Assembly: GCA_964016885.1 (NCBI GenBank)
Contig: OZ024740.1
Coordinates: 212,846,001-212,910,000, forward strand
DNA length: 64,000 bases
Origin: Eledone cirrhosa
Lineage: Eukaryota
Direction: 5' to 3'
The position numbers were made by a program, and so were the translations under genes. Below the pieces are notes generated by a model. The model ran no database searches. It saw nothing but the letters and a program-made list of their open reading frames with translations, and had not been told where the DNA came from. The number at the start of each line of letters is the position of its first letter. Positions within the stretch are counted from its first letter, which is position 1. Positions 9,790 to 51,496 of the stretch are shown piece after piece.

Positions 9790-10740
9790 AGTTGTTATCG
9801 GCTTTTCGCAACACTCCACCTAAGTGAACGAGAGCCGCAACAAAACGTCGAGGTAAGCACTAAAGTCCATTCAGCTATCCGGCCCGCCGCTGTCCGCGAA
9901 GAGCCGAGCGAAGTGATGCTGAAAAGCCGAACACATTTTCCCGGGATCGAGTAACATGCACCCGCTGTGGACCTCCCTGTCTATGAAGCCTATCTAAGTC
10001 GATTACACAAATCACAAATTTGTGGTCCGTGTAGTTGACTATCTTGAATTGTGGGCAACCTATGCTAGAACTATCTACTTCTTTCCAAAACACCCTATCT
10101 ACGTACGATCTGGATGACCCATGAGGTTTATTCATGTCCACATTGGCACATTCGGGAAATCCAGTCGGTACCTGTCAGAAAGTTGGAAACGTCTGAACAG
10201 GTTTGCGAGGTTTAAAGAGCCACTAGCCTGAAAGCATCGCCTTTGCTTCTGTTCACGTCCAGCACCACCGGCTTACCTTCTGGGTCCAGGCCTTTCCGAA
10301 ACAACAGTGCTACTCCGCCTCCCGATCCCGGCCGGCTTGAAGATGCGTACACATCGTAACCGTCGAAGACTGGTGCGAAGGCTTGTGCCTCGGAAATTCT
10401 TGCTGATGGCCACCACATCTATGTTTATTGACCTGAGGTCATTGAGCAGGTGGCCCTGCTTCCATGATGATACCAGGCTACGTGCATTTACACTGCCTAT
10501 TCTGAGTAAGGCAATGTTGAAAAAGAGTGGGAAAATGGGGAAAGACCACTTCCCACAGTTCTTGTGGAGGAAGGACGGTTCTTCCGTCGTTCTGACTGGT
10601 TGTGGCCCTCTCCTGAATGATGTCTTTGTACATCCCCCTGGAAAGCGTTTGCTGGAAATCTTCGATGTCATTGAGGAATTTTTCTTTTAGGGTTGTATGG
10701 GTTTTCTGTGAGATAAGTGTTATTTATATGTGTGTAGGTG
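9790..10740 (-). mobile_element. Tx1-type L1 LINE fragment (ORF1 end + deleted APE endonuclease + linker)
   Basis: LRIGSVNARSL..GHLLNDLRS..GGGVALLF..FRLVA..SRSYVDR..YTDHKFV; homologous to 58430-59500. Confidence 0.85.
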
Positions 10741-10795
10741 AACAATACTAATAATAATATGGACTAGGTGTCAAATTTTCATATATATATAGAGA

Positions 10796-10825
10796 GAGAT
10801 AGATCGATAGATCGATCGATCGATC

Positions 10826-10900
<75 letters not shown>
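10796..10900. repeat. (AGAT)n microsatellite abutting the LINE 3' end
   Basis: Long AGAT tract, with a few ATCG variants, directly joined to TTCTTTATT (AATAAA on the minus strand). Confidence 0.95.
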
Positions 10901-11134
10901 TTCTTTATTAGCCACAAGGGCGCAACAAGAAAAGGGGACAATACAAAGACATGCCGGGGATTTTACATACAGTCGTGTAAAAAATATAAAAACAAACACT
11001 TTCAACAATCGAAATCCCCAATAGGGGGGAGGCGCCACAAATGGGTTGTTTAATACCCCGTCGATAGAACAACCCTCAACTCCAGGAGCGTGTTGTGCAA
11101 GTGCTCCTTTCTTCCCTTTGCTCTCTTCCTCAAC

Positions 11135-14100
11135 CTACAGGCTTATAAACAGAGAAGGCCCAATCACTCGGGCCATTTTCGCTTCATTCACCCACCTTTC
11201 AGTAAATTTACTGGGGTGCAGTGCCTCTCTCTCCACCCTGATTCTCCTTCTAAAGTGATACTTAAAGAAGGGAATCAATTGTTGTCCGCAGAGAAAGGCA
11301 TCTGTCCTCAGTCCTCTCAACCTCGTCTACCATATAACTTCTTTCACCATAGCCACCGTACAGAGGAAAACCGCCTCTCTTTCGTTTTTGAAAGAGGCTG
11401 GCGGTTTGATCCTTACTATGGACTCGGCAGTCAACTGGATTTGTCCCATACGCGACAGCAGTTGTTCTGCATAGTTCCACAGGTCGCTTATGCCCGGGCA
11501 GTGTACAATTGCGTGCAGAACTGTTTCAATGTCCTGCGCACATCTTGGACACGTCCTCTTGGAAGGATCACTGCCAGGGCGTCCGTGCCTGTAGATCTTG
11601 TCACGAACCGGTAGAGCTCCTCGGTAGCACTGCCAGGCCAGGGACCTCTGGAAGTTGTCCATAGGTCCCGGGCGGAAAGTCCTACCAAACAGACTGGTGA
11701 GCTCATCGTCTTCGACGCCCAGAGTCTCTCCGAGCACGTCGTCGCCCTTGTAACGTACAATCCCTCTATAGAATGTCGAAGTGGAGTCTCCACTGATTGC
11801 TGCGCCCGCTTGCCAGAGGACTGTGAGCGCCTGAGCGCATTCAATGTGCCAGGCGCCCATCGTTTTCGGTCTTTTCTTCACCCAGGACTGCAGCTCCGTT
11901 AGCGAGACGAGCTGTGGGAAAGCCTGTCGCACAAACGGTGCCCACACCGGTTGGGGATCGGTGAGGAATACCTGGAGTTGCCGCAGCCTCAGCGCATGTT
12001 TTCGCATCATCAGCCACGGCATTCCCAGCCCTCCGTTGGAAGGGTGCTGACAGCAGACGGATCTCCTCACCAGCGGAGCCTGCTTCTTCCACAGAAATTG
12101 GAAGAGCATGCGTTCCATCTTGGCGAGGTGTTCACGGGGACAAGGCACGACAGTCAAGCGGTAGTAGATGACGGACGCTATGAAAGTGTTCGCCACCTCC
12201 GATCGACATTTCAAGGACAGTTTGCACTCTGCCCACTTCTGAGTGAGTGCAAACACCTTGGCCGTGACCTCGTTCCAGTTTTTCTCCAACTGGAGGTCTG
12301 GACCGAACCAGACCCCGAGCAATTTCACCGGTCCGTCCGTCTAGCGTCCAACGACGCTGTCGGATGTAATCGGTTTGCCTCTCCACGTACCGAGTTGCAA
12401 ACCGACAGACTTGTCTGGGTTTAATTTTGCTCCCGTCAGCGTTTCATATTCTTTCAGTAAGTTGCCGATCACCCCGATTTCTGAGGTGCTCGACACCATT
12501 ACCGTTACGTCGTCGGCATAAGCCGACGCCGCTTTGCGCAGTCCCGGTTCTAGGGGGATGCCCTGCAACAGCTCCAATTTCCGCAGTAGTGGCTCTAGAG
12601 TCAATACATACAGAATGGAGGAGAGAGGGCATCTCTGTCGAATGGAACGCGTGATTGCGAACGGCTCCGATAGGTAGCCATTCACCTTGACCCTCGAGCA
12701 GATGCTGGTGTGCATCGCCTCGATCCATCCTCTGAACATGGGACCGAAACCGGCCGCCTTGAGAACCGCTTCCAAGTATCGATGGTCGACCCTATCGAAT
12801 GCCTTAGACTGATCCAAGTTGATCAGAGCCCCACCGAAGCCGGGTTTACTACCCACCCTCTCTATGATGTATCGCATGAAGTGGAGGTTGTCGTGTATGG
12901 ACCTGGTCGGGATTGCACACGTTTGCGCTTTCCCCTTTGTATTTGTCCCCTTCTCGACAAGCGCCAGCCTCGTCGCTAGCACCTTCGCCAAAATTTTAAA
13001 CTCTGTGTTGAGCAGAGTTATGGGCCTGAAGTTGTTAATTTCGTCCACCTTGTTCTCGTCTTTCCTGATCAGCGTTACTACGCCCTTGCCTGCAGAACTG
13101 GGAATTCTCCCGTTCTGCTGCCAATTGCAGTAGACGGCTTCGAGGACGCCAGAGAACAAGTGTGGCATGCCTATGTAAAATTCGTAGGATAGACCATCTA
13201 GACCGGGTGACTTGCGTTTCCCGCAGCGGCCCAGAGCGTCCCGTATCTCAGTGTCCGTGATCGGTCTTTCGCAGAACTCGGCTTCCGTGTTCGAGAGACG
13301 CGGCAGGCCGTCGAGGTATGAACTAAAGTCCATTGCCCCGTTCGGCTCACCGTCGTTCTGCTCAAACAGTCGCGCAAAGTGCCGCTGAAAGGCCGCGCAC
13401 ATTTGCTTGGGGTCAAGTAGCACGCGTCCGTTTTGGTCTTTCAAAGACTGAATCGTGGTTTTGTTGCCACTTTTTGCCTCCGCCACTCGGGCCCAGCTGA
13501 CAGCTTTCGCTCCTTCGTTTCCTAGAGCACGTGTTTTGCTTCTGACCACGCAGCCTTCGTGTTTCGCATCGAAGAACTGGTCCAGTGCCATTCTCGACGC
13601 TAACACTCTAGCCGCGTTGCCACTTCTAAGTGCCTCCTCTACCTTGGCTACTAGTTCTCTTTCTATTCTGTTTTTCTCTAAGGCTAACTCTCTGCTATAC
13701 CCTATCGATTCTATTCTAATTGCTTTCTTGAGAGAGTACCACCATCTTATGTTGACGATGGCTCCCGTTAACTGTTGCTTGACTAGTCTACTTATCCGTT
13801 CACTGTAAGCTTTACGTGCCAGCAACGACACGTTCAGCTTCCAGTATCCGGGACCCTGTCTATGTATTCTATCACGGTTGTCTAAGCAGACAATGTGCAT
13901 TCGTGGACAGCTTAACATCTCCTTGTCCCTTTCTCTAATGAAGAACCTATCTAAATACGATCTAGATGTCCCACTGCGGTTTACCCACATCCACTGTGGT
14001 GCAGTCGGGAAATCCAGTCGATACCTATCGGCCAGTTGGAATTGGCCGATTAAAGTTTTGAGGCTGTTGCACCCCGCTCTACTGGGACATGCTCCCACAT

Positions 14101-14560
14101 AGTCCCATCGTGCTTCTAGGATACCATTCCAGTCCCCCACTAAAAGTAAGGAGCAAGACGTTCCCAGAAAAGACTCTAGACGCTTAAAGAAGTGTGGCCG
14201 TGATTGCGATTGCCCGGTCGGGGCATAAACGGCCACCAGTCTGAAGGCTCCTCCTCCGATACTGTTCACGTCTAGGACTACCAGTCTACACTCCGGGTCC
14301 AAGTGTACTTGCTGTACTCCGACGTCCAGGTTCTTCCGAAACATAACAGCCACTCCACCTCCACCTCCTGGCTGACAGAGAGATGCGTTGATCTCAAAGT
14401 CGTCGAAGATGGGGGTTAGTTGCTGCCTGTTGTGGATCCTGGACTCGGTGATGGCTATCACATCCATACTGTGTGACCTAAGGTCGTTTAAAAGTTGGCC
14501 CTGTTTCCAGGGCATCCCTAGGCCACGCACATTCACGGTTCCAACTCGTAAACCAGCCAT
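11135..14560 (-). pseudogene. Tx1 ORF2 (APE endonuclease, reverse transcriptase, zinc finger), disrupted
   Basis: GTVNVRGL, ITESR, VGDWNG, SYLDR; KSPGLDGL, NFRPITLLN, DQSKAFDRV, YADD; CPRC..ETVLHAIVHC. Two TGG>TAG stops (12341, 11327) and an in-frame loss of the APE TDH motif relative to sister copies. Confidence 0.92.
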
Positions 14561-14601
14561 GTTGGTGAGGAAAAGTTGGAGAAAAAGGGCGAAAGGTGCA
14601 C

Positions 14602-16484
14602 TTACCTTTTCGTTTCCTGGAGATCGGGTTGTTCAATCTCCATTTTGGTGCTGGATGGGGTGTTGGGTGGGGTGGGGAAACATTTAAACAGGACGCGGTT
14701 GATGGGTTTGTGGCAGGGGTTGCCCACGTCCTGTGAAAATTTAATTTTTAGGTCTTTATAGGTTTCCATAGAAACCCTTATAAGTTTAAGGTGTGGAGAC
14801 GATTCTGCCTTGACGAAAGTTTCCCCTCCGTCTCCACCTTGGGGTTTTGGGAGATGACATCCATCAAACTCTTGTTGTTTGTGTTGATGTATGCGTATTG
14901 TTGTTTGTGTTTTTGTTGCGTTGTTTTAGTTTGTTGTTCGTCCGGGAGTTTTCTTTTTATGGTGGGTGCTTGTGTTTGGGGTGGTGTTGGTGCTGGTTTT
15001 GCTGATAGGGGGGTGTTTGACTGTGGTGTTGTTTGTGTTGTTGTTTGTGTCAGTGGTTGTGTGTTGGTAGTTTTGGGGGTTTTGTGATGTCTCTTTTTTT
15101 TGTTTTTTAGATTTCCGCGGTTCTCCCTCTTCTTCACTTAAAGAAGGAGAAGCAGCTTCATCCGTCGATGAATAATCATCGTCAGGTGTGGGGGGTAAGG
15201 GTATGTTGTGTGGTGATGGTGGTGTTTCGGTATGTGTGTTTGTGGTAGTGTTTGATGGAGTGGGATGGAGTGGGGATGTGTTCTTCAGGGTGTTGTCTCT
15301 GTTTTTTCTGTTGTTGTTGGTTGAATGTCTGTTTGTTTTGGTGTGGTTGCTCGTTTCGTCTGTCGTTGTACTTGTGGTGGTGGTGGTTGTTTTGGTGTTG
15401 GTGTTGGTAATAGCGTTTTTTTTATGATGTTGTTGTTGTGTGTTTGTGGACAAGAGGCTTTTAGGTGAGCTGTGCTACCACAGCGAAAGCAATGCAATTT
15501 TCGTCCTTCTACCGAAATGTTTATTTTGTTGTTATTATCAATAACGACTCTTTCGGGTATTTTGGAGATTCTCTCCGGTTTCATTTGCAACAGAATCTCC
15601 AAATCTGTGCCCGCCCACCTTTGTCGAATAGATTTTCGTATCGAAAGTATTATGTCTGTTTCTGGCTCTACGAAGCCAGCCAAGATCCACCAGATGTAAA
15701 TGCTTGGAGGTATGTTTTTTATTTTTATTTTTTGTGTCCTTTTCCCCATGTATGTAGGGAAAAAGGTGTATGCTTTTGACACTATTGGTGTCACAGAGTT
15801 TTTTGGGGCGAGTGCCTCGCTTTTAAACAGTACGGAAACACTTCCGTAGTGTTTTCCTCGCTGGAGAAAATCGACATTTGCTAGAATTTCCTTGAAAGAA
15901 TCTTCTATATCTGCTTGATTAACAAATGTCGGCTTTCTTGACGAATTTAACACAGTCCTAAAAGTGACTGATCGGCGGTTTGTGTTTTCCTTTATTTCAA
16001 GGGGTGAGTTAATTCTAAACCCACCTCTTTCTTCGAAAGTTACACATTTTCTCCCTTGCTGGAGCATATCTCTTGCGTTGGAGATATCAAGATTTATAAG
16101 ATCTTGTTTCTTGTTCACTGTGTCAGCGAAAGACATTTTCTTTTTTTGTGTGGTGTTGCTGTTGATGATGTTGTTATCTTTATTGGAAATCTCAGTTCCT
16201 TGTCGAGGTGAAACTTTATGTGTAGATGTATCTGTAGAGTTGTTGATGTCTTTTTCATGTGTATGTATGTCAATGGGTTTTTTTGCTGTGTTTTCCTGTG
16301 TGTCATTGTTATTTTTTTCCGCGGTAGAAATTGTAAAATTTTCAAATGTTAATATATTTTTTTCTTTTGTGACAGTTGTATCTATGGCGACGTCCATAGT
16401 AGCAGAAGCAGATATAACGTTAATATCTGACACTTTCTCTCTGTTTTCACTATTAACGTTCTCCAGCGTTCTAGTGTTGCTCAA
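14602..16484 (-). pseudogene. Tx1 ORF1 (zinc-knuckle nucleic-acid chaperone), frameshifted
   Basis: ISVEGRKLHCFRCGSTAHLKASC knuckle and Thr/Pro-rich linker. C-terminal KLIRVSMETYKDLKIKFSQDVGNPCHKPINRVLFKC..QETKR* is conserved in the other copies. Confidence 0.85.
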
Positions 16485-16716
16485 GTTATTTACTTTGTAA
16501 AATCTGATATTTTAAAACAAAATTTTAAAATAAAATTTTCGCCCCTACAGGGGCGAAAAATGGAATTACCACCCTGCTGACAATTCAGCTTGGGGGTTAA
16601 TCTACAAAGTGTTGTGTTTTTTCAAACAATTAGATCGGTTTTTTGCATAGAAATTAACAAAAAAGCTTACCGGCGATGTTCCACACGTCAGACAGAAAGA
16701 GAAATAGATAGATATA

Positions 16717-19613
16717 TTTCTTTATTAGCCACAGGGGCACAAACGAAGGGGACAAATACAAAGGGGGAAGTTTACATACAATAAAAACGTGTAAAATGTT
16801 ATCACAAATGGAATTTAAAAAGTTAGTCGATTTTCCCCAATAGAGGGAGACAGTTTATATGGGTAACACATACCCCCGAAAAAAAAATGTGCAACCCTCA
16901 TCTCCAGGAGTACGAAGAGTTTGTACTCCTTTCCTCTCCTCCTCCTTTTCCTCAACCTACAGGCTGATATAGAGAGAAGGCCCATTCACTCGGGCCATTC
17001 TCGCCACTTTCACCCACCTTTCATAAAACTTGCTGGGGTACAGCACCTCTCTCTCCATCCTGATTCTTCTTCCAAAGTGGTATTTGAAAAAAAGAATCAG
17101 TTGTTGGCCGGAGAGAAAGGTGTCTGACCTCAGCCCTTTCAACCTTGTCCACCATACAACCTCTTTCGCCATAGCTATCACACAAAGGAAAACTGCCTCT
17201 CCTTCGTTTTTGAAGGAGGGTGGCGGTTTGATCATGACAATGGACTCGGTGGTCAACTGGATTGGTCCCACCCGCGACAATAGTCGTTCTACATAGCCCC
17301 ACAGGTCAGTGACGCCCGGGCAGTGTATGAATGCGTGCGCGAAGGTTTCTTCGTCTCGCACGCACCTCGGACAAATCTTTTTTGCAGGGTCCCAGACGTT
17401 CCCAGAAAAGTCTCTAGACGTTTGAAGAAGTCTGGCCGCGGTGTCCCGGATGGGGCATATGCGGCCACCAGCCTGAAGGCTCCACCTTCACTACCGTCAA
17501 CGTCTAGGACCACCAGTCGACCCTCCGGGTCCAGATGTACCGTCTGTGTTACGAGGCCCAGGTGTTTCCGCAGCAAAACGGCAACTCCGCCCCCACCCCC
17601 GGTTGACAGAGAGATGCGTAGATCTCAAAGTCATCGAAGATGGGAGCCAGCTGTCGCTCGCCGTGGATCCTGGACTCGCCAATGGCTACCACATCCATAC
17701 TGTGCGACCTGAGGTCGTTTAAGAGTTTGCCCTGTTACCAGGGCATCCCCAGGCCGCGTACGTTCACACATCCAACTCTTATATTGGCCATGTTGGTGCT
17801 GAAAAGTTAAAAGAGGAAAAGAGATCACTCACCCTTCGTCTTCTGGGAACCAGGCCGCACGATTTCCATGGGGTGTTGGAGGGGTTGTCTGGATGGGTGG
17901 TGGTTTCCGGCGGGGTGGGGACGCAGATGTTTGGTGGGGTGGGGGTGTCTGGGGTGGGGAGACATTTGAGAAGGACGCGGTTGAGTGGTTTCACGCAGGA
18001 ATTCCCCACATCCTTCTCAAATGTTTCTTTTAGGGACCTATAAGTTTGTATAGGGACCCTAATCAGTTTTAGGTTCAGTTTTTTGCTATTTTTAATAGAG
18101 TGGGCGAAAGTTTTCCCTTCGGTGAAAACCGAAGGGTCGTTCGTGTTGGTCTCCATTAGTGTTTTGTTTTCAGTGTTTATGTAAGTGTAAGTGTAATTTT
18201 CTTGTGTTGTGTTTGTTTTTGTCTGTAGTTCTTGTGTGTGCTTTCGTTTTGTTGTAGGTATTTTGTTTTCAGGAGGTGGGGGTTTTGTTTGTGATGTTTT
18301 TGTTGTTTCTGTTGGTGGTTGTATGTTTGTGGTAGTGTTTGCTGGTTTTTTGCTTTTGTGATGTCTTTTCTTTCTTTTCGAGCGATTGGGTTCTCCCTCG
18401 TCTTCACTGGGTGATGGCGAGATAGCCTCATCTGTTGTATCGTCTGTATGATTGGGGAGGGGTATGTCTTGGGGAGCTGTTGTGTCTGTATGTAATTTTG
18501 CAGTGGTTTTAGGTGGAGTGGGGTTGGGTGGGACTGTGTTTTTTGTGGTTATTTTGTGTGTTGGTGTTGTTGTTGTTGTGGTGGTGGTGGTGGTTGTGTT
18601 GTTTTGATGGGTGTCGGCAGAAGAGCCTTTTTTGATTCATTAATTTAGGACAGGAAGCCCTCAGGTGACCCCTGCTAAAGCAATGGTAACATGAAGGCCG
18701 CCTACCCTCAACCGAAAAGTTTATGTAGGTGAGTCCGTCCAGGAGTACACGTTGTGGGATCATAGCTATTCGCTCTGGGCTCATTTGCACCAGAATTTCA
18801 ATGCTAGTCCCATTGAATACATCTCTGGGGGACTTTCCTACTGACAGTATTCTGTCTTCATCAAAATTGATGAAGCCGCACAGTATCCACCATATGTTCA
18901 CCTTTGGTGTGACACTTATGATTCTGATCTTTTGTGTCCTTTTTCCCATGTATGTAGGGAAAAAGGTGTACAGGTTGGATACAATTGGCGACACAGAGTA
19001 ATTTTGGGTCGTCAATTGATCCTTCATGAGTACCGAAATACTCCCAAGTTTGCTTCTTTGAATGAATGCAATATCATTCATTGAATTTTTGAAAACCAGT
19101 TCAATTTCTTTCTGTGACAATTGGACTGGTTTTCGGGTAAACTATCGTTTTGAGAGCAGTATCCTTGCGAATTTCTACCGGAGAATTGATGCTGAAAGCA
19201 CCATTTTTTTCGAAAGTGACATATCTCCTAGCGTCCTTTAAAAGTTGTTCAGCTTTTGTTATGTCGAGATATATCAATTCTCCTTCTTTTGAACTTTCTC
19301 TGCAAAGGAGATTTTTGGTTTCTTTGTGGAATCCGTATTGGTGGTGTTGTCATTATTGTTGTTATTGTTGTTGTTATTCCAGTTGTCACCGATGTTGGTA
19401 TTATCCGTATTTTCCTTGGTGTTGTTGTTGTCTTTGATGCTGGTGTTATTGGTGTTGTCTTTATTTTTTTCTTTGTTATTGTTATCATTGTTGCTTTTAT
19501 CATCATTATTGGTGTTGCTGTTATTTTTGTTGTCATTGAACTATTTGGTGTCATTTGTGTTGTTTGAATATGAATTCGTTTTTACATTTTCATTTTGTCT
19601 TTCCATCTCTTTC
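16717..19613 (-). mobile_element. Second Tx1-type LINE with a large internal ORF2 deletion, head-to-tail with the first
   Basis: ORF1 (Asn-rich N-terminus; YTFFPTYMGKRTQKI; CYHCFSRGHLRASC). The APE start is fused at ~17375 to the zinc-finger end (EETFAHAFIHCP). 3'UTR homologous to 10901-11134. Confidence 0.88.
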
Positions 19614-22517
19614 CATTCAAATGCTGTCTGCACTGATGTTAGGCCTCTGCCTCCCTGCTTACGTTTAAAGTAAAGGCGGTCTATGTCACTGTTGATGTGG
19701 AAGTTTCCGGTGTTGTTTAGTATTTTTCGAGTTCCAACATCAACTGCTCGGATTTCGTCTATCGTCCAATTGAGTATTCCAAACGTTGGTGTTAGGACAG
19801 GCACAGCAAATACATTGTGAGCCACTGTTTTGCGCAGAGTTCCGATGACCATATCTTTCTTAATCGGGTGTAGTATTCCCTGGTTACGCGTTCCTTATTA
19901 CAGATACCATTATAGGATATGTTCTCATCTATTCCCAGGTATCTGTAGCAGTCCTCATCAGATATCGGTGAAACAGTTAGGCCATTGATGACAATGTTGC
20001 TAGATTGGGTTGTTGTTTTTCCCCGCTTTACAGTCCTATATGAACATTTATCTTGGCCAAACTCTATTCCTATATCCTTTGAGAACGTTGTAACCAGGTC
20101 AAGATTTTTCTTCATCCCATCCATGTTTTTGGCATAGAGTTTCAGATCATCCACAAAGAAATTATGGGTTCGGTTCTTTTTTCTGTCCTGTGAGCCAATG
20201 ATGTATCCTTCACATTTCTTGAGCAGAAAGGACAAGGGGTTTAATGAAAGGATGAATGATATCACAGAGAGACTGTCCCCCTGAAATATACCCCTGCGAT
20301 ATTTTATTTTATCAGTGAAAATAGAGTCCTCCTTCTCTGTCTTTAACTTTAGGATAGTAGCCCAAGAAGAAGACAGCCTCTCTATGGCCCTGACAATAAT
20401 GTCTGAGACTTTAGCAAGTTGGAGGGCCTCTATCATCCAAGAGTGGGGAACAGAATCGAAAGCTTTCCTGTAGCCATATTCCTCCTAAGTTGTCGCACCT
20501 TCGACATCGCAGTTTTGTTAATTAGGAGTTGTTCAGCACATTCCCAAACCCCTTTATTTCCAGCTGCTTGTTCATCTGTGATGATGTTATTATTTTCACA
20601 GTGATCTTGGAGGAATAGATTCAGGCAGGCTGTATAAATCTTATACATCAGGTTCTGATATGCAATGGGTCGGTAGTTTTTTGCCAAGTGGGTATCTTTG
20701 TTCTTGTGGACCAGTAATGTTTGTGCTAATGTCAACCATTCTGGTATAAGTGTATCTCCCTTAAGAACTTGTTGGTAAGATACCTCCGATAGAATATCAG
20801 TTTTTTGTACCAGTAGCCGACAGTCATGTCTCTTCCCTGTGTTTTCTTATCTTGGAGTTTTCCTATCACAGTCTCAAGGGTACTCTCACTTATGTCGTAT
20901 GTTTTTGTTGCAGTGTAGGAGCAATAGTTCTTTCGCATTTCTTTTAGCCACACTGCATCTTGGTTGAAATTCTTCTTTTCACCCCATATTTTGCTCCAAA
21001 AGAAATCTGTCTTTCTCGGATGGGGCTTCAGTGACACTTATTATTTTGCCCTTCATATCTCTGTAGACTGATGTTTGGTTTCGTCTGAATCTTTTATTAA
21101 GCACTTTTCTCTCATCTACCTTCTTCAGGTATCGGCGTTTTTCGCTAACAGCTCTCAATTCTTGTTTGAGCGTGATCATCTTATATTGAAGAGTTCTGGT
21201 TCTACTGTTACCAAACAACGTCTCTATTTTATTTTTCACTCTTTGTTGGTGAGGAGTGAGGTTTTTTTGTGTTTGTTTGGATGTAAGGAGCATTGTTACA
21301 TATCCAATGGTTTTTCGTAGGTCAGTAATCTTTTTTTCTATTTTAGTTATATATGATGATATTTTTGGTGGTGTTTTGTTCTTGTTAATATCTCTGCTAT
21401 CACCAAGATAATGTTTCACTGTCGTTGCTAAGGCATATAAACAGTCGTTGATTTGCCAAAATGTTGGGGGTTTTATCAGTCGTAAATATTCATCCCCTAT
21501 TTCGTCAATAACACATAATATTTCATTATTTGGCTTTTTATTAAATATTGTCGTTTTAATACGTTCAGCAACAGAAATGTTTATACATGAATTAATTTCT
21601 CTCTAGAAGATTTCGTTGAGGGAAATTTTCAATTGTTTATACTTTTGATTATTATTATCATTATCGATAGTATTCTCCACAATAGTCGAGGTAGACTCGG
21701 ATGGTACACGTGGTGTCAAATTTCTTCGATTATTATTATTATCGATAGTGTTTTCCCCAGCATTCGAGGTAGACTTAGATGGTACACGTGGTGTTAAATT
21801 TCTTAGATTATTATTATTATTTCTTCGATTATTATTTTTATCGATAGTATTTTTCATAATACTTGAGGTAGACTTAGAGGGTTCACGTAGTATCAAACTT
21901 CTTACAGGCATAGTTGTTTCAAGGCACTGTTCGACCTGGCTGCTAGGAAGTCTAGTAGCATGGCGACCTGTAGCACATGTTGATTCCATGTTTGTTGTGT
22001 GAGACTTACAATTAATAATATTTATCTTATTTTTACGTTCAACATTGGCGTAATTGTTTCGCTGTGAAGTGATTTAGCTCTGGGTGTATTTCGTCCCAGT
22101 GTAGCTTCATTTTGTTCAATGGAAGATTTGTTTTTTGTCATTTTATAGCAATTAAATAACTCATCACTAAGTTCGCAACTCCAAGAGAAATGCGATTTAT
22201 AATTTTCTGTAGCTACAACTGAATAAATTTTGTTTACCTTTCTCGTTTTTCTTCGGTACTCCACTGATGTTGTTGTTGTTGATGTTGTGTTCAGCCATGC
22301 TGTTTGTAGCAAATCCTTGTAAAGTGAATTATGTATTTAGTCGGATATCTCTACGAATTCGAATAAAAGGTGTCTTCAGAAGATATAGTTAGAAGAATAT
22401 CCAGTTATTCAACATGACTGGCAGTTGTGGCATTACTGTCGGAGATAGTATTCATCTTAAATTTAATGAATCGTCTCCCATACCAAAATATGCGACTGAT
22501 CGCGTTGACTGACTATT
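19614..22517 (-). mobile_element. R4/Dong-like RLE non-LTR retrotransposon, 5' two-thirds, decayed
   Basis: NYRPIAY..MYKIYT, RRGIFQGDSLS, FFVDDLKLY, YRYLG, RLYFKRKQGGRGL. 5' end abuts (TGTA)n at ~22518. Confidence 0.8.
21650..21900 (-). repeat. Coding tandem repeat (~3 units of ~80-95 bp) in the N-terminal region of the R4/Dong-like ORF
   Basis: Repeated peptide (NL)TPRVPS(K/E)STS...ENTIDNNNN in ORF 21603-21989. Confidence 0.8.
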
Positions 22518-28117: not shown

Positions 28118-31100
28118 ATGATGGCTGCCCCCTCGTTATCGAGTATGGCCATTGCACGAGGAGAAAGAAGAAAAAAAAAATAATAATAATAATAAATAAA
28201 TAAAAAATAAATAAATAAAAATAATAAAAAAAATATATATATATACATATACATACACATATACACACACACACACTCACACACAAATATACACACACAT
28301 ACATTAATAACAATAATAATAATCATAACAATAATAATAACGACAACAACAATAATAATATACATATACATATATATATACACACACACGCACACACATA
28401 AGCATATCTACACACACACACACACGCGATAGCAACTAACAGCGCTGCGATCGAATGTGGCTTTTTAGCCCAGCCAATGATCTAAAATGTCTTGCACAGA
28501 GTCGGCAACCAAAACATTCACTGGGAATAGTCGGCTGTGGTTGGAGTTCGTGTACTTTTGCATGTCGCTTGAGCCCTCCTGCTGATTTACATTCTCTACC
28601 ACATGTTTGGCAAGCATGATGAGTAGCATCTCCAACAGCAGCCTGGTAGTCAACCACTGGTCTCCCTTTATGACTTCGAAGATGACTTTCGAGTCCAGCT
28701 TTGCTTAGGCAGAGTCTCGCACAGACGTTGCATGTCAGCACCATAGGAGGACCCTCGCCGTCCGGAAGTGCAACAGCAATGCCCTTCCTCACATCCCGCT
28801 TTACTTTCTCGTATGCGATTCGAGATGCCTCAAAGGCAACTTTTCCCTCATATACAGTCTTTCTCCATTTATTACGATCAGCAGCAATATTCTCCCATGT
28901 ATCAGCAGAGATGTTAGCGTCTTTCAGAGAGGCTTTCAAGGAATCCTTATACCTCTTTTTTGGTTTATGTGGCGGTAGTTTTCCTTTAACCAACTCTCCA
29001 TAAAAGAGTTGTTTTGGTATTCTAGAATCGGAGTCGTTGCTTAAGCACAAGAGCTTCTATACTGTCACACATAGAGCTTTCCAAAATCTCGACATCACTG
29101 ATGTGGTCCCTCCAGTGAACGCCATGGATCCGTCTGAGACACATCTGATGGAAACGCTCCAATTGCTTAAGGTGGTGTCGATATGTGACCCAGGTCTCGC
29201 AGGCATAAAGAAGACAAGAGAGCACACATGCCCTGTACACCTTTACCTTTGTCCTCCTGCATATATCTCGCCGACCCCAGAGTCGCCTTTCTAGCTTTCC
29301 GAAAGCATCACTTGCTTTCCTAATCCTAAGTGAGATTTCACTGTCAAGGTTGCTGTATCGATTGACAGTGCTTCCCAGGTAGACAAACTGATCAACCACT
29401 CCAAGTCGTTTGCCATACACATAGATGTTTGGTTCAGTGTACTGCTTACCAGGGGCAGGTTGGTACATGACGACGATTTTCTTGAGACTGACAGTCAGAC
29501 CTAGGGCAGTGCAAGCGTCAGAAAATGTATTCAAAATGTGTTGCATATCACTCTCTGTGTGCGCTACAAGATCGCAATCATCTGCATACAAGAGGTCTCT
29601 TATGATTGATGTAAATACTTTTGTCTTCGCAGCAAAGCGCCTGATGTTAAATATGCTGCCTGAGGTTCGATATCGGATGTAAACACCATGCTCGTAATTC
29701 CTGAATGCAATACAGAAAACCATTGCAAAGTATATGGCAAACAGGGTCGGTGCTGGAATATCCCCCTGTTTCACTCCATTTTTTACTGAGATAGGCTCCG
29801 ACATGTTACCCCCGACATTAACCCAAGCCTTCATGTCGTCATGGAAAGACCTAACTAAAGCAAGGAACTTATCAGGGCAACCAAGTTTCTGGAGAACCTT
29901 CCATAATGCATCTCTGTTAACAGTATCGAAAGCTTTTGTCAGATCGACAAAAACCTGATACAGATCCAAGCCTTGTTCCATGCACTTCTCCTGGAGCTGT
30001 CTAGCTGAGAAGATCATATCAGTAGTGCCGCGTCCAGCACGAAAACCAGATTGACTTTCAGGAAGAACACAATCTGCAATGTGTGTCAGCAGACGGTCCA
30101 GAAGCACCCTACATAAAACTTTCCCTACGACAGAAAGCAATGATATACCTCTGTAGTTCCCACAATCGTTCCTGTTACCCTTTCCCTTGTACAAGACCAC
30201 CATTACTGCATCTCTCCAGTCCTCAGGTACGGATTCATTAGCCCATATCCTGCCAAACAAAGAGTGAAGATGTTGCAGGAGTCTCTCACCACCATATTGT
30301 AGGAGCTCAGCATGTATGCCATCCATACCTGGAGACCTTCCACTGTTCAGCTTCGAAATAGCCACTGCAACCTCCACAAGCGTCGGAGGTTCTGCGAGAG
30401 CTACTTTCACAGGACTTTCTGGAATGAGATTGAGGAAATCTTCACTGACGACAGACGGCTGATTCAAAAGATCATCAAAGTGTTCTCGCCACCTTCGTAG
30501 AATTCCTTGTGAGTCACGAAGAAGTTCTTTGCCATCCTTGCTGCGAAGCGGTGTCACCAGAGAAGAAGACGGTCCATAAACCTCACGCAAGAGACTGTAC
30601 AACAGCTTTGTGTTATTGGAATCAGACGCAGTTTGTATCTCACCAGCCTTCTCACTCCACCACTGATCCTTCATCTGAGAAAGACTCCGCCTAACATGTG
30701 ATTTTACATCCCTGAGTTCCTCATGCAACGTATTCCTCTCCTGTGGTTTTGCCGTCAAGTAGCGTGACAGAGCACGCCTCTTATCAGCCAACAAGTCTTC
30801 TATATGTACATCATTCTCATCAAACCAGTCCTGATGTTTCCTCTGCGCCAATCCCAGAACACGCCTGCCTACATCATAAACCGACTTTTTAAGGGTCGGC
30901 CAATCCTCACCAAGATCTGCAGCCTGCATCTCTTCTTCCAATGTCCTCTTCACATTTTTATCCTTAAGACGAGCAGCATTCAATCTTTTGGGCAGGGCAA
31001 CACCAGGAGCCCGGATTTTACGTTTAGTGATTAGTTTCACTTTTGCGCGTACCAGGCGGTGGTCCGTCCAGCACTCAGCTCCACGAAGAACACGAACACA

Positions 31101-32275
31101 CTGCACATCCTGTCTGTCACGCATCCTGACTAGGACGTAGTCCAAAAGATGCCATTCCTTAGATGCAGGATGCATCCATGTGGTCTTGAATTTGTTCTTT
31201 TGTTGGAACATGGTGTTGGTAACACACAGATCCAGCTCCTCACACATCTGCAGCAGGAGCATACCATTGCTGTTACACTTTCCCACCCCATGCTTTCCGA
31301 TTACATTCCATATGTTAAAATCCCTACCCACTCTAGCATTAAAGTCACCAAGCACGATGACTTTGTCTGCCTGAGGGATATTTCTTAAAACACCTTTCAA
31401 AGCATGGTAAAAGGACACCTTTTCCTCATCGACAGAACTCATAGTTGGAGTATACACACTCACCAGGGTAGCATATCTTCCCTTGTCCAGCGGAACTCTC
31501 ATGGACATAAGACGCTCACTAATCCCTACTGGGAATTCTTCTAATTTGTTCACAAGCACAGTCTTAACAGCAAATCCTACCCCAGCCTCTCTTCTGGTTC
31601 CTTCATCTCTTCCTTTCCAGAAGAATGTATATTCTCCACAAAATTCCGTAAGATGACCATCTCCAGCTAGCCTCGTCTCAGATAAAGCCAAGATGTCAAG
31701 ATCGTAACGTCGAAGCTCCTTTGCAACAAGAGCGGTCCTTCGTTCAGGACGCCCCAAGGAATCCCTGTCAAGCAGCGTCCGTACGTTCCAGCAGCCAAGA
31801 CTAAATGCCTTGTTTGGCTCTATTACAATGGCACGATGACGAGCGGGCCCAGGCTGTGATAACCTGGGGCCCCTGCCCTTATTGCCAATGATCTTTTTTG
31901 TTCCAGAACCTAAATTGCCAATTATCTCTTTTATATTGTTCTGGAACATCATTGAATTGGAAAAAAAAACAAAAAGTAATAATAATAGTAATAATAATAA
32001 TAATAATAATAATAGTACACTATTAATAATTATTAATGCACTCGTGCAATGCCTGTGCGTGACGAATATTTTTAAAGTGAGGAAAGACTGTGCACTGAGC
32101 TAATCCCACTCTCTGAGCGACAGTAGCTATAATCCGAAAAGAAGAAAAGATCAACATCATCGGTAACTACTGAGCCGCAGGTTTTATGTCGGAGTTAACC
32201 CAGTTTCCTGAGATGCCTTCTCCTAGAAGAATGCCCTGACAGGGGCTAGGAGTTCTTCACTGCGAGTGGTTTAAC
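28118..32275 (-). mobile_element. Near full-length RTE-clade (BovB-like) LINE
   Basis: 5'UTR motif CTAGGAGAAGG (~32220), single APE-RT ORF, microsatellite-rich 3'UTR, terminal stem-loop CTCG-ATAA-CGAG..GCAGCCATC and (ATGT)n tail. Confidence 0.88.
28436..31952 (-). pseudogene. RTE ORF: APE endonuclease + RT + C-terminal C2H2 zinc fingers; one frameshifting deletion near 29035
   Basis: 976-aa open frame with GCWNVRTL, LSETRL, GDFNARVG, TDHRLV, NYRGISLLS, DLTKAFD, GVKQGD, LYADD. Continues in 28436-29050 (DSRIPKQLFYGEL; three CxxC..H fingers). True start codon uncertain. Confidence 0.9.
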
Positions 32276-40203: not shown

Positions 40204-43200
40204 TTACCAATACTGTAATACTCTGTTAGTGGTATCAATTGCAAATTTTATACCATCAGGATCGCACACTCGAGATGCAGCAACATACAGTTGCCCATGG
40301 CTGAATTCTGGATCATTCAAGTAGACACCGACTCGCTTGAAAGTCTGACCCTGTGCCTTGTTGACAGTCATGGAGAAGGCCAAATGAATGGTATCAGATC
40401 TTCACTTGGTCTCAGCATTATCCTCGGAATGAGAACCGATTCCTCTCTGCCTGGGAGTTTAGCTTCTAAAACTCTTCCGTTAATCAATCTCTCAACAATC
40501 AATCTGGTACCATTGCAAAGACCCATTTTATGATTGATATTTCAATATAATCGGCATACCCTTTTTCAACCTTAAAATATGTGGGGGAAATCCGGGTATT
40601 TGAAGTGAATTCAGATACTCAGTCGGAACATCCATATTGTTCTGCTGATTAGGCTCCATTGCATCCGCACTGAGGGTCAACCATTCCTCTCCAGGAAACA
40701 TTCTGGCTACTTGTGAATTTATTTCATCGACCGTTGCATTCGTATGAGTTAGAATAACGCGTTCCGATATCCAGGAGATATTCTGCCAAAAAGCATTCAA
40801 ATTAGGGAACACCAGTCAATCAATGCTTGGCAGTCCAGTGGCATGACCAAATGGTCTGGGATTCTTACAGTCTGATTATTACCAACGTGTGGCAATTTAT
40901 CGTTTCCCAACTGCATCAACCATATGTCTCAGCCTCTTTGTTTTGCCCGAACATACGAAGTCGTATATTATCGTGTAATCGCAAAACTCTGAAATGGCGC
41001 CACAACGGGGACTTTTTCAGACACGCATCGACAATTTGCGCTCTTTGAGCATTCCTAACAATTGGTAGCACCTGGCTGAAATCGCCACCAAGAACGATAG
41101 TCTTACCACTAAATGGCAGGTCACTACCGCAGATATCTCTCAAAGTTATGCCCAATGCCTCCAGCAAATATCTGTGTGCTTATTGGAGCCTCGTCCCAAA
41201 TAATCAGAGACGTATTGCGTATAAGGCACGGGAATTCACTTTGTCCTGTAATGTTACAGACACTCAACTCATCCGGAGCCAATGGAGCCTTGAAGCATGA
41301 GTGGAAGGTCCTTCCACCACTCAGCAAAGTGGCAGCGATCCCACTGGTGGCCACAGGGAGAGCAATCTTCCTCTGAGCTCTGACTTCCGATAACATACTG
41401 TGGAAACAGAATGTCTTTCGGGTGCCTCCTGGAGCATCTATGAAATTGCTCATTAGTGGAAATCGAGAGGAGAACGCCATCGCCCAATTCTCTCTGAGAT
41501 TGGGTCAACATTGGTATACGTTCATCCACAATACGTTGCTGTTCCAGTTGATCAAACTGGAATAGTTCCCTCCGATCGAGTGGCAACCGTCTAAGCTGCA
41601 ATCTCATGTCCAATGGTAAGACACGTTGCCGCATTTCTTCATCAGGAATTGGCAAATTGAAATCTGTTAAACATTTGAAATGAACTTCAAGCACTTGCTC
41701 AATATTGAGCAAAACAGTAGCTTTCATCAAATTTTCATCATCGACCTGAAGATGATGCCTAAAATCATCAGCCATAATTCCCCAATGGCGTTCAAATAAC
41801 TTTCTTGGATCGGCAGGATTGCAGAATCCTAGAATCGTGACAAACAACTGCCTTATTTGAGCTGGCATCTGTGTAGTTCGTGCAGCTTCCATGGCGTTAT
41901 TCCATTCAGCGTCATCCTAAAGGAGTCCCAGATGCTGACACACAGCCTGGTATGTTTCATATTCCACGCCATTGATTGTTTTCAAATCAGCGAAGCTCTG
42001 TTTACCTCTCGAAAAATCATTATGCAACAGAATTCGGAGATAAAACACATCACCAGATGCTGGATGGACATTACAAACCCGTCCAATAGTCATGAATCTC
42101 AACTTTTGTTTTCTATCATTCCATTTCTTTCCCTTCTTATCCCACGTATAGCGCGAAGGGAAATCGCAGTAGAGTTGCCTTTGATCCGCGTTCAAAGCAT
42201 GTTCCCTATTATGCTTGAACCACTCAGTCAATTCCGCCTTAGGAGGTGGTGCGTAAGCAATTCTTTCGACACATCTAGTGTCCTGAAAACAGAGCATTTA
42301 CCTATTCTCTAAGTGAACCGTCAGTTTCTGAACGCTGGGTTTGCGTTCATTGAGATCAAAATCGAACAATCTCCAGCAAGCTTCGCTAGATCCAATCGAG
42401 CGAACATCCTGGAACCTGCCAACTTCATCTCCTTGGTTAGCTTCCTCATTCATGACATTGATCATTGCCCGATCATGACCTTTGTAAACATATTTGAATA
42501 GATATTTGCAAGCTTTCACTGAGCTACAAATTTCCACATTAATATGACAACAATATTTCATAATCAAATATGGATTGTATGGCACAACCCATTGATTTGT
42601 AACCTGTCGACCGTTTACATTTTCGACCAAACCGCCATCTGCAGGCGACCGTCTTCTGTATAAGGGATGAGCATCCTCATCGTTCCAAGAAGTGTTCGTG
42701 ACAACAGATTTCGGAAAGTGCTTATTGCATTGGCCATTTTTCATGCAAGGCGCTTTCCGATTTGCCACTCCGCATTGGTTGTGCACCATTGATTTTACCA
42801 CCAAAAGTGCATCCTTAATATCAGTCCATTCAGGATTGCATGTAACCGTTATAAACAAATCTGGCTTTCCAAACTTTCTGACAATAGCCATTGCATCCTG
42901 ATAGCGGATGTTCATATATCTCGGGCCGCCGATGAACGACGATGGCAAAATGATGTGTCGACCAATTTGCTTGTAATTGGCATCATCGGCTGTTATCGCA
43001 TCCTGTATATTATTATACAATTCAGCTCTGATATGTTGCTGATGTGTAGCTATATAATTTAGCCTTTGATTTTCGATCTTTGAGAATGCCATACAACAGT
43101 ATTCCTGGAACAATCTGCTGGCTTGAAATAGTGCATTTCTCTGTTGATTCCTCTCGTTCAAATGGAACGCGTAAAAGTCGCGAATCGAATTATTGTGTCT

Positions 43201-44462
43201 ATTGCCGCCTCCCTGTTGATGCTGATTCTCATGATCATCTAAATGAACAGACATGTTCCATCCATTTTCACCTTTTGGGAATAAAAGAACATAATGCAAT
43301 GGATCGTATGCCTTATTTGACTTATTGATAGTCTTGAGACCACCATCTCTGTGATTAAGGACGATACCTCTCGATCCAGGCTTATCGTCCATCAACACAG
43401 CAACTTCATGAAATCCTTCAGGGGCATTATATCGCCGTTCGTGTTGATTCCATGGCACTGCGTCAGCCTTAATCACCAATGTTTGCTGCTGAACATTTTG
43501 CAGTTCAGCCACCAACATGAAATCCATAACATAAGGATTACACCGTCTAAGCCATGATTGCAAATCACGGATCAAATCACTTAACCTTTGCCGTTCAAGT
43601 TCAGTTATATTTCCCGGCAACTTCATTCAACCGATCCTGATATCCTCCTCCGATTCACTATAATCTGGATCGTTAACGTAAATTTGAGCGAATCGAGGCC
43701 TCTCTCCTGAGGTAACTTCTAAATTACCGATACAATGATACAAACGGCCTTGAATGACTACCTTCGGTGGCCATGCTCCACTCTCAAACATCTCACTAAC
43801 TCTCTGCGAGGCTAAAGCTAATGAATTGTTAATTTGCTGCGAATATTTGCGCAGTAATCTACCTCGGTCTCCTTGATCACCCCACATACTTAGTATTTTA
43901 AACTCCGGTGACTCTTCATCATCCGGCATTCGCAAGGGTTCTAGTTGAACTGCTCCTTTATGACAGTACATTGTGGTCCACGTCTTTTCGTGCCTCCACA
44001 GCAATGCTCCACAATGTGGAAACTCTGCTCGTCCACCAATCTGAAAATGACACGGTTGCCATGATCCATTTTTAATATCATTCGTTCGCCTTCTAGCCTC
44101 TTTAATGGAATGAGGAGCACTTTGGCGACACATTCTCTAAACTTCTGTATTGCGCTGGCGCTGTTCAGCCAGCTCCTCTTCATCCATCGCAGCACGCCGT
44201 TTCTGCTGAATTCTGGCCATCTGCTGATGATGCTCAGCCAGTTCGTCTTCAACCATCGCAGCACGCCATCACTGCTTGGCTCCAGTGTTTCGTTGGCGTT
44301 GATCAGCCAGCTCCTCTTCATTCATGGCGGCACGTCTTCGCCTCTGAAGTTCGGCGTTCCGATGGCGCTGCTCGGTCGTTTTTCTTCATTCCTGGTTGCA
44401 CGCCGTCGCCGCTGTAGTTGACTGTTTGATAAAGTCGAATTGCTTTTATTATCAGTATTCAT
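40204..44462 (-). pseudogene. Helitron Rep/PIF1-helicase (RepHel), decayed
   Basis: N-terminal charged repeats; CGALLW..E zinc finger; YDPLHYVLLFP.GE.GW; LPSSFIGGPRYM; KPDLFITVTCNPEW; VVPYNPYL; KYLFKYVYKG; DAPGGTRKTF; ATSGIAATLL; IIWDEAP; GGDFSQVLP; INKAQGQT; [11 protein letters not shown]. Many stops and frameshifts. Confidence 0.92.
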
Positions 44463-45049: not shown

Positions 45050-45355
45050 TATGTTAAGATATATTAACAATAACAAAATAACAATAAAAATACAATGAAA
45101 ATTCCCCAATAGGGGTGATGACCACCCAGGGTTCACTCAGGTACCCCGCCAATCCTAAACGACCCGACACTTCGAGAGCACCCGGGAAGGGCACCCCTCT
45201 CAAATTCACCCACCTACAGGCGCATGATCAGAGTAGGCCCACTCACACGGGTCATTCTCGCCACATTCACCCACCTTTCAGCAAATGTCCTGGAGGGCAG
45301 CACTTCTCTCTACACCCTCACCTTCCTTTCCAAGTGAAACTTGAAAAAGTTGATG
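45050..45355 (-). mobile_element. Tx1-type LINE 3' terminal fragment
   Basis: FHLERKVRV.REVLPSRTFAERWVNVARMTRVSGPTLIMRL* followed by a 3'UTR. Confidence 0.75.
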
Positions 45356-49588: not shown

Positions 49589-51496
49589 CGTAGTTTAGAA
49601 AGCCACAACAATGCAGAGGGAAATCTCGAGGTAGGAAGTGAATGATAGATAGGAGAAACAGGAGAAAGTGAAAATAGAGAGAGACAAAGATGAAAACAAA
49701 ACAAAGGTAGGAGGGTTACCGTAGTGGAGATTTAATCCCAATATTTCGGGCTCACGCCCATCAACGGGGGAAAGTTCCAAAAGGGAGGAACAGGCTAAGC
49801 GGAGAAAGTTGTGATGTCGTTAAAACAGGAATGCCGTTATGGGGAGAAAAATTATTTAAAATGTAAATGAGGGAAAGAATGCGCGTGCGCGTGATAGGCT
49901 ATGGCAAAAGCTACTGACCAAATGGGTTAAATCAAGAGGGTGCGCTAGCGTGTGAAAGCCGTAAAATATGTGTGTGTAAATATATATGTGTGTGTAACTG
50001 TGTGTGTATATGTGTAAGTGTGTATATGTGTGAGTGTGTGTGTGTGTGTGAAAGATAGTGGGCTGTAGAAGCTGGAAATCATAGGGTGTGAAAGGTGGTA
50101 GGTTGTAAAACATGTGTGCGTGTATAAACATGTGTGTGTGTAAGCGTATGGGTATACATGTGTGTGTAACTGTGTGTGTGTATGTGTGCGTGTGTGTGTG
50201 AAAGATAGTGGGTTGTAGAAGCTGGAAATCAAAGGGTGTGAAAGGTGGTAGGTTGTAAAAACATGTGTGCGTGTATAAATATAGATGTGTGTGTGTATGC
50301 GTATGGGTATGCATATACGTGCGTGTGTGTGAAAATAGCAGGCCGTAAGGGCTGTGAATGGTCACTATGGTTAAGTTAGCCATGTCAGCTCATTTCTCTC
50401 AGCCCGGTTGTTAAGTGGGGGTCTGAGGTTCTTAATAACAAGTGCTTCCTTTATCCTTAAGGATCCGATGCTGCGTTCAGTCGCTAGGACTGTGACCAAG
50501 GGTCTACCCTGTGGGTTTCTGCATTTAAGGATGTGTTTACGGAAGGAAGATGCGTTGGTGTTGATATGTTCCTTGATACGAACATGTAGGGGTCGGATGG
50601 TGCTACCTATGTAAAACTTGTTACATTTATCGCATTGAATCTTATATACGACATAGGTGCGTAGGCAATCTGCCCCCCGTATCGGGCAGTTGCTGAGGGA
50701 ACACGTCCCATCTGACTCGTCGGGTTTGTTGGAGAGGCATCTTCGCAGCGAAGGTCCTGTGTGGGCCAAATGTATGTCAAGTCCCTCCGTCCGTATGGCC
50801 CTGCGGATGGCGTTCGTGGTATATTCACTCAGGTGGGGGATTTTAAAGAAGCACCTGCTTTTATTTGAGTTTCTAGTGGGTGTCTGTCTATTGGGTCTGG
50901 GGTCTCTAATTCCGTTAATCAGTCGCTTGGGATAACCATTAGACCTGAGTAGATTACGGAATTGCGTGGTATGGGTGAGACCACCCATCGGGTCGCTGCA
51001 TCTGTTAGTGATACGTGTCAGTTCATTTAGGACATAGCCTCTCTTAGCGTTGTTGGGGAGGGCTGAGTTGTAATGCACAAATAAGTCCTTGCACGCTGCT
51101 TTGCGGTAGAAGGTGGTGTTTATGTCTCCTTCTTCCGAGATGTTGATACGGAAGTCCTACCTTTGTTTTGTTTTCATCTTTGTCTCTCTCTATTTTCACT
51201 TTCTCCTATTTCTCTTATCTATCATTCACTTCCTACCTCAAGATTTCCCTCTGCATTGTTGTGGCTTTCTAAACTACGTATTTTACACATTTCACAATGC
51301 TTCAAGCAAACTTTAACACCCTCTTATCATTACACCTGAGCCAGGACTTGTTTGCACCCATAAGGGACCTATTCAGACTTTCGGAGAATCGTGACAAACT
51401 CGGTTGCCAAATTACCTTCTTAAAACGCTGCCTAAAGAACAACATCATTCCAACCACCATCAGGAATATACATCTACCCGAATGTTTACGATCACC

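Follow-up and report, generated by a model that had tools for sequence, protein, structure and literature searches.

Long interspersed nuclear elements (LINEs) with two open reading frames (ORFs) yield much ORF1 protein (ORF1p) and little ORF2 protein (ORF2p) from one RNA, by a mechanism that is open for most LINE families (PMC3894237). In Drosophila copia, an intron of ~3 kb spanning pol is removed, giving an RNA for the structural protein only (PMC5580714). Human L1 RNA has usable splice sites, and its spliced forms (SpIRE and SpORF2) alter the ORF that is made (PMC5860796, PMC2896524); transcripts of several elements, L1, TART and Tad among them, have also been reported to contain introns (PMC1636488). 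L1-Tx1 families were recently active in Octopus vulgaris (PMC13282606). Here we analyse a window of 64,000 nt from the 3.0 Gb genome of Eledone cirrhosa (assembly GCA_964016885.1, contig OZ024740.1, positions 212,846,001 to 212,910,000 of the forward strand), in which positions 10790–16700 of the minus strand hold a full-length copy of a two-ORF LINE. All LINE features given below lie on that strand. At the end of ORF1 this element carries a U1-type 5′ splice-site (donor) motif, which is conserved beyond chance and is under selection.

The motif of the window copy, which belongs to family A, is AAG|GTAAGT (14600–14608), in phase 2 and with the ORF1 stop codon inside it. An earlier note on this DNA had read donors at 14605, 17832 (AGG|GTGAGT) and 59303 (AAG|GTAAGT) and a decayed form at 10552, and all were confirmed; the last three belong to a family-B copy (17827–17835; phase 1 in most B copies), a family-C copy (59298–59306; phase 1, in a family whose ORF1 ends G-K-stop) and a C′-type copy (10547–10555). 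All of the 30 best copies of family A have the donor. These copies are nearly identical and make a weak test of conservation, so other lineages were sampled through the B and C copies of the window, through copies picked by an endonuclease motif in genome order, regardless of the donor, and through neighbours. G|GTRAGT is present in 28 of the 30 copies picked in genome order, 339–361 nt upstream of the endonuclease motif and just before the ORF2 ATG; the two exceptions show one deletion and one G-to-A point change.

Sixteen lineages were obtained in this way, their ORF2 DNA being 69–84% identical in the pairs listed and their ORF1 cores 30–53% identical to that of A, together with 17 lineage representatives with both ends, two of them point-mutated copies. 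On the ORF2 tree of the 16 lineages, donor positions −1, +1, +2, +5 and +6 have zero parsimony changes; +3 alternates between A and G (A2, a copy chosen for its mutation, has T), and a single change at +4 falls in young F. As background on the same tree, zero changes were found in 2 of 49 flanking columns and in 17% of 244 four-fold sites. The tree alignment was trimmed around the donor, and the representatives of G, picked as mutants, were scored as ambiguous; lineages have also recombined (L111, L117), which leaves the tree imperfect for the donor region. The motif is not accounted for by the stop codon, because the stop varies and the phase switches between 1 and 2: the phase-2 stop inside the motif is TAA in A, C′, H and I, TGA in B2–B5 and TAG in F, and in the phase-1 lineages (B, C and D) ORF1 reads the motif as G-K or G-E and the stop comes after. 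The motif lies within two codons of the ORF1 stop in all 17 representatives. No other donor-like motif is invariant along the element, further donor matches numbering 0–2 per element, against 1–3 on the antisense strand. For lineage E and two other 3′-end types, no donor was found in the sequence retrieved.

Some features of single lineages were also observed. L111 and L117 are recombinants, with a C-type ORF1 end and a C′-type 3′ end. Lineage F (L362–L386) is very young, its best 40 matches being at 100% rounded identity and many having an open ORF1; its young copies read GTAGGT where older F copies read GTAAGT. The C-type copy of the window has two further G|GTAAGT, at 58992 (in the endonuclease, donor +310, common to C′) and at 60062 (inside ORF1).

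We tentatively favour the reading that the motif is a real donor, used in a copia-like splice that would remove ORF2 and give an ORF1-only message with a disposable tail. That an octopod LINE clade treats the whole ORF2 as an alternative intron, with the donor joined to the ORF2 stop codon itself and the normal 3′ end kept, seems possible but somewhat doubtful from the sequences compared. In the favoured scheme U1 would bind the ORF1-end motif and the donor would be spliced to an AG that coincides with the end of ORF2 or lies close to it, namely the stop codon in most lineages and another AG in C′, and the 200–245 nt ahead of AATAAA would form the last exon. With ORF1 already whole at the donor, the sequence past the junction would be a disposable tail without a conserved signal. 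The unspliced RNA would stay the template for ORF2p and new copies, so that splicing efficiency would set the ORF1p:ORF2p ratio. We rank the ORF2-removing splice first because the site stays where ORF1 is left whole and because of the copia/EVD logic.

The geometry at the 3′ side is consistent with this. From 14605 to 11135 there are 3471 nt, as the earlier note had counted, and in family A the same ORF2 end lies 3376–3501 nt downstream of the donor in 19 of 20 full-length copies. TAG ends ORF2 in 15 of the 17 lineage representatives and in 75 of 95 distinct ORF2 ends, the others being 12 TAA (11 in C′) and 8 mutated or out of register. An acceptor is supported by 60–80% pyrimidines upstream and by a G after the AG in 13 of the 15 TAG representatives. 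AATAAA follows the ORF2 end at 197–247 nt in 13 of 17 representatives, those where it was found.

Several observations weigh against a splice to this site. The TAG of ORF2 (TAG|G, 11133–11160) is conserved only at the neutral, synonymous-site level: its G changes once on the tree, and one change or none is seen in 39% of 62 two-fold sites and in 46% of 39 majority-G two-fold sites. The earlier note had regarded ORF2 ends in TAA as a sign against its model, and such ends are the rule in one abundant lineage, C′, which accounts for 15 of the 30 genome-order copies, lacks the stop AG and keeps a perfect donor. Families A and B have a further AG 7 nt upstream of TAG, TAG|G is able to pair with an upstream GCCT, and a polypurine motif in the 3′ untranslated region (UTR) is normal in human L1 (PMC5860796). 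Read on in their own phase, 8 of 15 lineages meet a stop at most two codons past the junction, against 7 of 15 in the other phase; a co-variation of donor phase and post-acceptor stop, hinted by F, I and B3, was rejected on the same counts. The 122 pattern hits, drawn from families A, B, C and F, include no precisely spliced genomic copy, and GT-AG ends are absent from all 50 internal deletions.

The heptamer CCTGTAG, which the earlier note had proposed as part of a conserved acceptor, is indeed seen at 11135, 16957, 45214 and 61754, the last three being the ORF2 ends of the B copy (16955–16975), of a D-type 3′ fragment (TAG|G, 45212–45230) and of an E-type copy (61752–61770). It amounts to a Leu codon plus the stop, and its supposed special conservation was not confirmed: C follows TAG at 61754, C′ reads TCTGTAA, and the 7-mer occurs 7 times per strand in the window. 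The B copy has a 2602-nt internal deletion whose ends are not GT-AG. Several lineages (for example L207, L410, L194 and L177) have GTRAG- or GTAGG-like letters after the ORF2 stop, which makes TAG|GT donor-like as well (recursive-site-like), and in most lineages an out-of-frame stop lies a few bases past the ORF2 stop. The ORF2-end pyrimidines and the purine run were considered as the two arms of a stem and discarded, since their pairing ranges from 0.0 to 0.98 across lineages and is inconsistent.

The pattern hits (A 18, A 44, A acceptor side 6, B 9, C 24 and F 21) came from exact-match patterns for copies that depart from the unspliced sequence past the donor or ahead of the acceptor, and each of the 122 was read; C′, D, H and some junction classes lay outside the search. 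Three genome matches to AAG|GTTGAGG reflect the loss of 7 nt at the end of ORF2, not splicing. Spliced human L1 copies, which retain ORF2, are ~2% of full-length ones (131 of 6609) (PMC5860796). The missing spliced copies count moderately against an abundant, retrotransposable spliced RNA; their weight is only moderate because an RNA without ORF2 would depend on trans complementation, a process of low efficiency in L1 (PMC5860796). Such an RNA may, in addition, lose part of the 3′ recognition structure. As for the junction in contigs of run X4, of unknown type, none of the 14 joints listed (one more was dropped at a repeat) falls at 11134/14606 or 16956/17833, contigs proving presence only; in four runs of unknown type from one study, none is at the sites among the 15 of 186 joints listed. 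The depth of X4, relative to X1–X3, is higher over ORF1 than over ORF2; it was set aside, since parts cannot be ranked by contig depth and the peak lies on low-complexity repeats.

The main rival, which we rank close behind the ORF2-removing splice and also hold to be doubtful, is binding of the U1 small nuclear ribonucleoprotein (snRNP) without splicing, which would block premature polyadenylation or govern nuclear retention or stability of the bicistronic RNA. It agrees with a constraint that is clear on the donor alone, phase, acceptor and tail being free, and with the spliced copies missing from the 122 hits and 50 deletions; AATAAA occurs 1–5 times per element on the ORF1 side and 0–1 times in ORF2, a second AAG|GTAAGT lies ~310 nt downstream in C and C′, and premature termination is repressed by U1 in EVD (PMC5580714). 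Binding of this kind has no need for a site exactly at the ORF1 stop, yet the site is there in 17 of 17 representatives. In addition, the poly(A) signals are mostly upstream and distant, ORF2 has almost none to suppress, and the extra donors are at the chance level of the antisense strand. It is unlikely, in our view, that the donor likeness is incidental and the motif non-spliceosomal, being an ORF2 termination-reinitiation signal, an internal promoter or plain inheritance. The motif does adjoin a pyrimidine spacer and a conserved CAAC-ATG, all lineages have a common ancestor, and ORF2 initiation is open for most LINEs (PMC3894237). However, the allowed changes (purine at +3, A/G at +4, +5/+6 fixed, G at −1) track U1 pairing rather than the stop codon, lineages differ in how far the motif lies from the stop, and the flanking columns vary freely.

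A splice over a short range appears quite improbable. The candidate acceptor CCTYAG|GTC at donor +127 (14474–14487, ORF2 codon 28) would define a 128-nt BARE1/EVD-like intron, removing the ORF1 stop, the spacer and the ORF2 start; the outcome would depend on phase, with an in-frame fusion to ORF2 codon 28 in phase 2 and a frame shift in phase 1, and the fusion would lose the first endonuclease motif, both of which speak against it. GACCTYAGGTC (ORF2 codons 26–29) is invariant in the 16 lineages, C′ included, and changes in its 15-nt window number 4, the mean being 19.5, yet several ordinary coding windows are equally conserved. Two genomic deletions (L330 and L142) start at the donor and end ≤10 nt from this acceptor, but they are imprecise and fit microhomology, and the exact product was not found among the A, B, C and F hits. 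The least probable of all is the full model of the earlier note, in which the ORF2 intron is combined with a conserved, basic tail resembling a nuclear localization signal (NLS) that would give ORF1p a new function; as a clade-wide feature it is largely refuted. Joining the two sites in silico does yield the same 27-residue tail, in family A its frame stays open over 28 codons, and a 57-nt spacing is common to A, B, B2 and B5. On the other hand, the spacing is 50, 52, 53 or 58 nt elsewhere, and over the 15 TAG lineages the join adds 1–37 codons, with the 8 early stops given above; the sister family mostly stops at once. A lack of frame conservation in the 3′ segment, which the earlier note had counted against its model, is seen in part. 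The sister copy at 17832, said to continue in the same frame, is frameshifted and its long ORF1 is in phase 0; among 19 B copies scored by the longest frame at the donor, 12 are in phase 1, 3 in phase 2 and 4 in phase 0, and the phase-1 B join meets a stop after one codon. The argument from synonymous changes was not confirmed either, the ratio of nonsynonymous to synonymous differences (pN/pS) of the tail being 0.48–0.87 (21 codons) against 0.52–0.98 in the control frame and 0.23–0.37 in ORF2. The local conservation of the tail letters is explained by a 3′ UTR hairpin (11084–11108), kept across lineages with some compensatory changes; this stem-loop follows the purine run in all 12 and 13 sequences folded, and 3 of its 7 pairs show two-sided change. 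Besides, ORF1 already holds a basic stretch.

The donor was also sought beyond this genome. A profile search with ORF1 listed 150 proteins, of which 5 match the C-terminal domain and 3 extend to the domain end; all 3 (Octopus sinensis, Argonauta hians and one ENA contig) have G-K within the last 7 residues. A G-K there is what a phase-1 donor encodes; this is cross-species support at the protein level only. Foreign ORF2s were matched at 40–70% identity. Among more distant relatives, the motif occurs near the ORF2 start in 1 of 26 examined, from 80 loci fetched, mostly of 22–35% identity. One distant metagenomic L1/Tx1-like element has an ORF1 that ends at G|GTGAGTAA (L225:1925-1940) and an ORF2 that ends in TAA. 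The core of the Octopus sinensis RefSeq protein XP_036364761.1 (P0120, gene LOC118765946) is closest to C′ (36–39%). Past G-K it has five residues that are purine-coded, unlike the pyrimidine spacer, and a W-K whose offset matches that of a phase-1 reading of the C′ 3′ UTR. The likeness of this tail to the C/C′ 3′ UTR is not significant (shuffle p 0.057, best of 11 comparisons); the protein may be an already-spliced product, which we offer as a lead only. The protein records P0172, P0177, P0232 and P0150 join ORF1 pieces to unrelated host-like domains, and could be gene-model errors or cases of exon capture.

By its ORF2 domains, separate ORF1 and 3′ tail, the element is an L1/Tx1-type APE LINE; the narrower clade label Tx1 is presumed from architecture. 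In the window copy, ORF1 (14602–16397) comprises an RRM-type core, a CCHC knuckle, a low-complexity linker and a C-terminal domain, as judged from alignment and domain look-alikes. It is followed by a pyrimidine-rich inter-ORF spacer with CAAC at its end (14561–14599) and, after the ATG, by ORF2 (11135–14560), which has an N-terminal APE endonuclease, a reverse transcriptase (RT) and a C-terminal zinc-binding region, the match to the last being weak. This copy is damaged, with frameshifts in ORF1 and two stops in ORF2 (12343 and 11329). L049 is an unbroken natural copy with an ORF1 of 596 aa and an ORF2 of 1148 aa, the latter matching Pfam PF03372 and PF00078 above the cutoff and PF13966 below it. 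The Pfam scan of its ORF1 gave no match, and word-indexed protein searches with ORF1 returned nothing. The CCHC knuckle is visible in the alignment, with zf-CCHC and ZCCHC3-RBD look-alikes at 0.90–0.93; matches to nucleocapsid are weak (E 0.04–0.5). The named homologues of ORF1 are all octopod (Octopus sinensis, O. bimaculoides, O. vulgaris and Argonauta hians). The 3′ end consists of AATAAA and a (TCTA)n tail (10790–10909), there are no long terminal repeats (LTRs), and short 3′ fragments, that is, 5′-truncated copies, are among the fetched loci. The clade has thousands of copies, with 7139 exact genome matches to one endonuclease motif, and the family-A ORF2 end has 1107 exact matches, which are unspliced 3′ ends. 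The spacer starts with a YCTTTY run in most lineages (14590–14599 and equivalents), which presumably resembles a TCT-type initiator, and GACCTYAGGTC (14474–14487) is also a palindrome with a one-base spacer.

Copies of different lineages stand head to tail, each inside the (TCTA)n tail of the previous one (10790–10909, 16700–16730; L063–L065, L123, L209), which suggests a preference for microsatellite or tail targets. The B-A tandem block (10250–18100), with the same 2602-nt B deletion, recurs nearby (211.9, 212.4 and 213.0 Mb) as local duplications. Other mobile-element frames of the window, labelled by eye, lie at 29022–32099, 19541–21602, 41269–44136 and 50371–51156 (−), and include a 1025-aa RTE-like ORF, broken RT frames, Helitron-like frames and a Penelope-like GIY-YIG end.

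The element resembles copia in having a donor at the end of the structural ORF and in the logic proposed; copia, however, is an LTR element with a single ORF and a demonstrated splice, whereas here ORF1 of a two-ORF LINE has its own stop and the splice is predicted (PMC5580714). EVD and BARE1 share a conserved U1-like donor just past gag, whose quality outweighs that of the acceptor, but splicing there generates the stop and is tied to early polyadenylation (PMC5580714); here the stop is genomic. The human L1 donors described differ in lying in the 5′ UTR and removing the 5′ UTR or ORF1, not ORF2, and spliced genomic copies of L1 exist (PMC5860796, PMC2896524). HAL1 is likewise an ORF1-only product of L1, but as a separate genomic family (PMC5753468), whereas precise-junction ORF1-only copies were not found here in A, B, C and F. 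The L1/Tx1 elements of octopods share an APE-RT-zinc ORF2 and an RRM/CCHC ORF1, and the main text on Octopus vulgaris L1-Tx1 makes no mention of a splice signal (PMC13282606); 25 of the 26 distant relatives are without the donor motif. Neither a conserved donor at the ORF1 stop nor removal of ORF2 is described in the portions of the literature on LINE and copia splicing that were consulted. No selected donor motif in a LINE was found in the literature, with most subscription journals and the Repbase reports outside the search, and novelty is unproven.

By analogy, this clade may work like copia, but it does not belong to that group, being a two-ORF LINE without LTRs. A clade-wide U1-type site at the ORF1 stop, with natural variants of phase, stop and acceptor, makes an RNA-processing answer to the question of ORF1p and ORF2p output testable. 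If the ORF2-removing splice is true, this LINE would have converged with copia on splicing as the means of setting its ORF1p:ORF2p ratio. The clade has, moreover, spread thousands of strong donors in the genome, and these could capture host transcripts.

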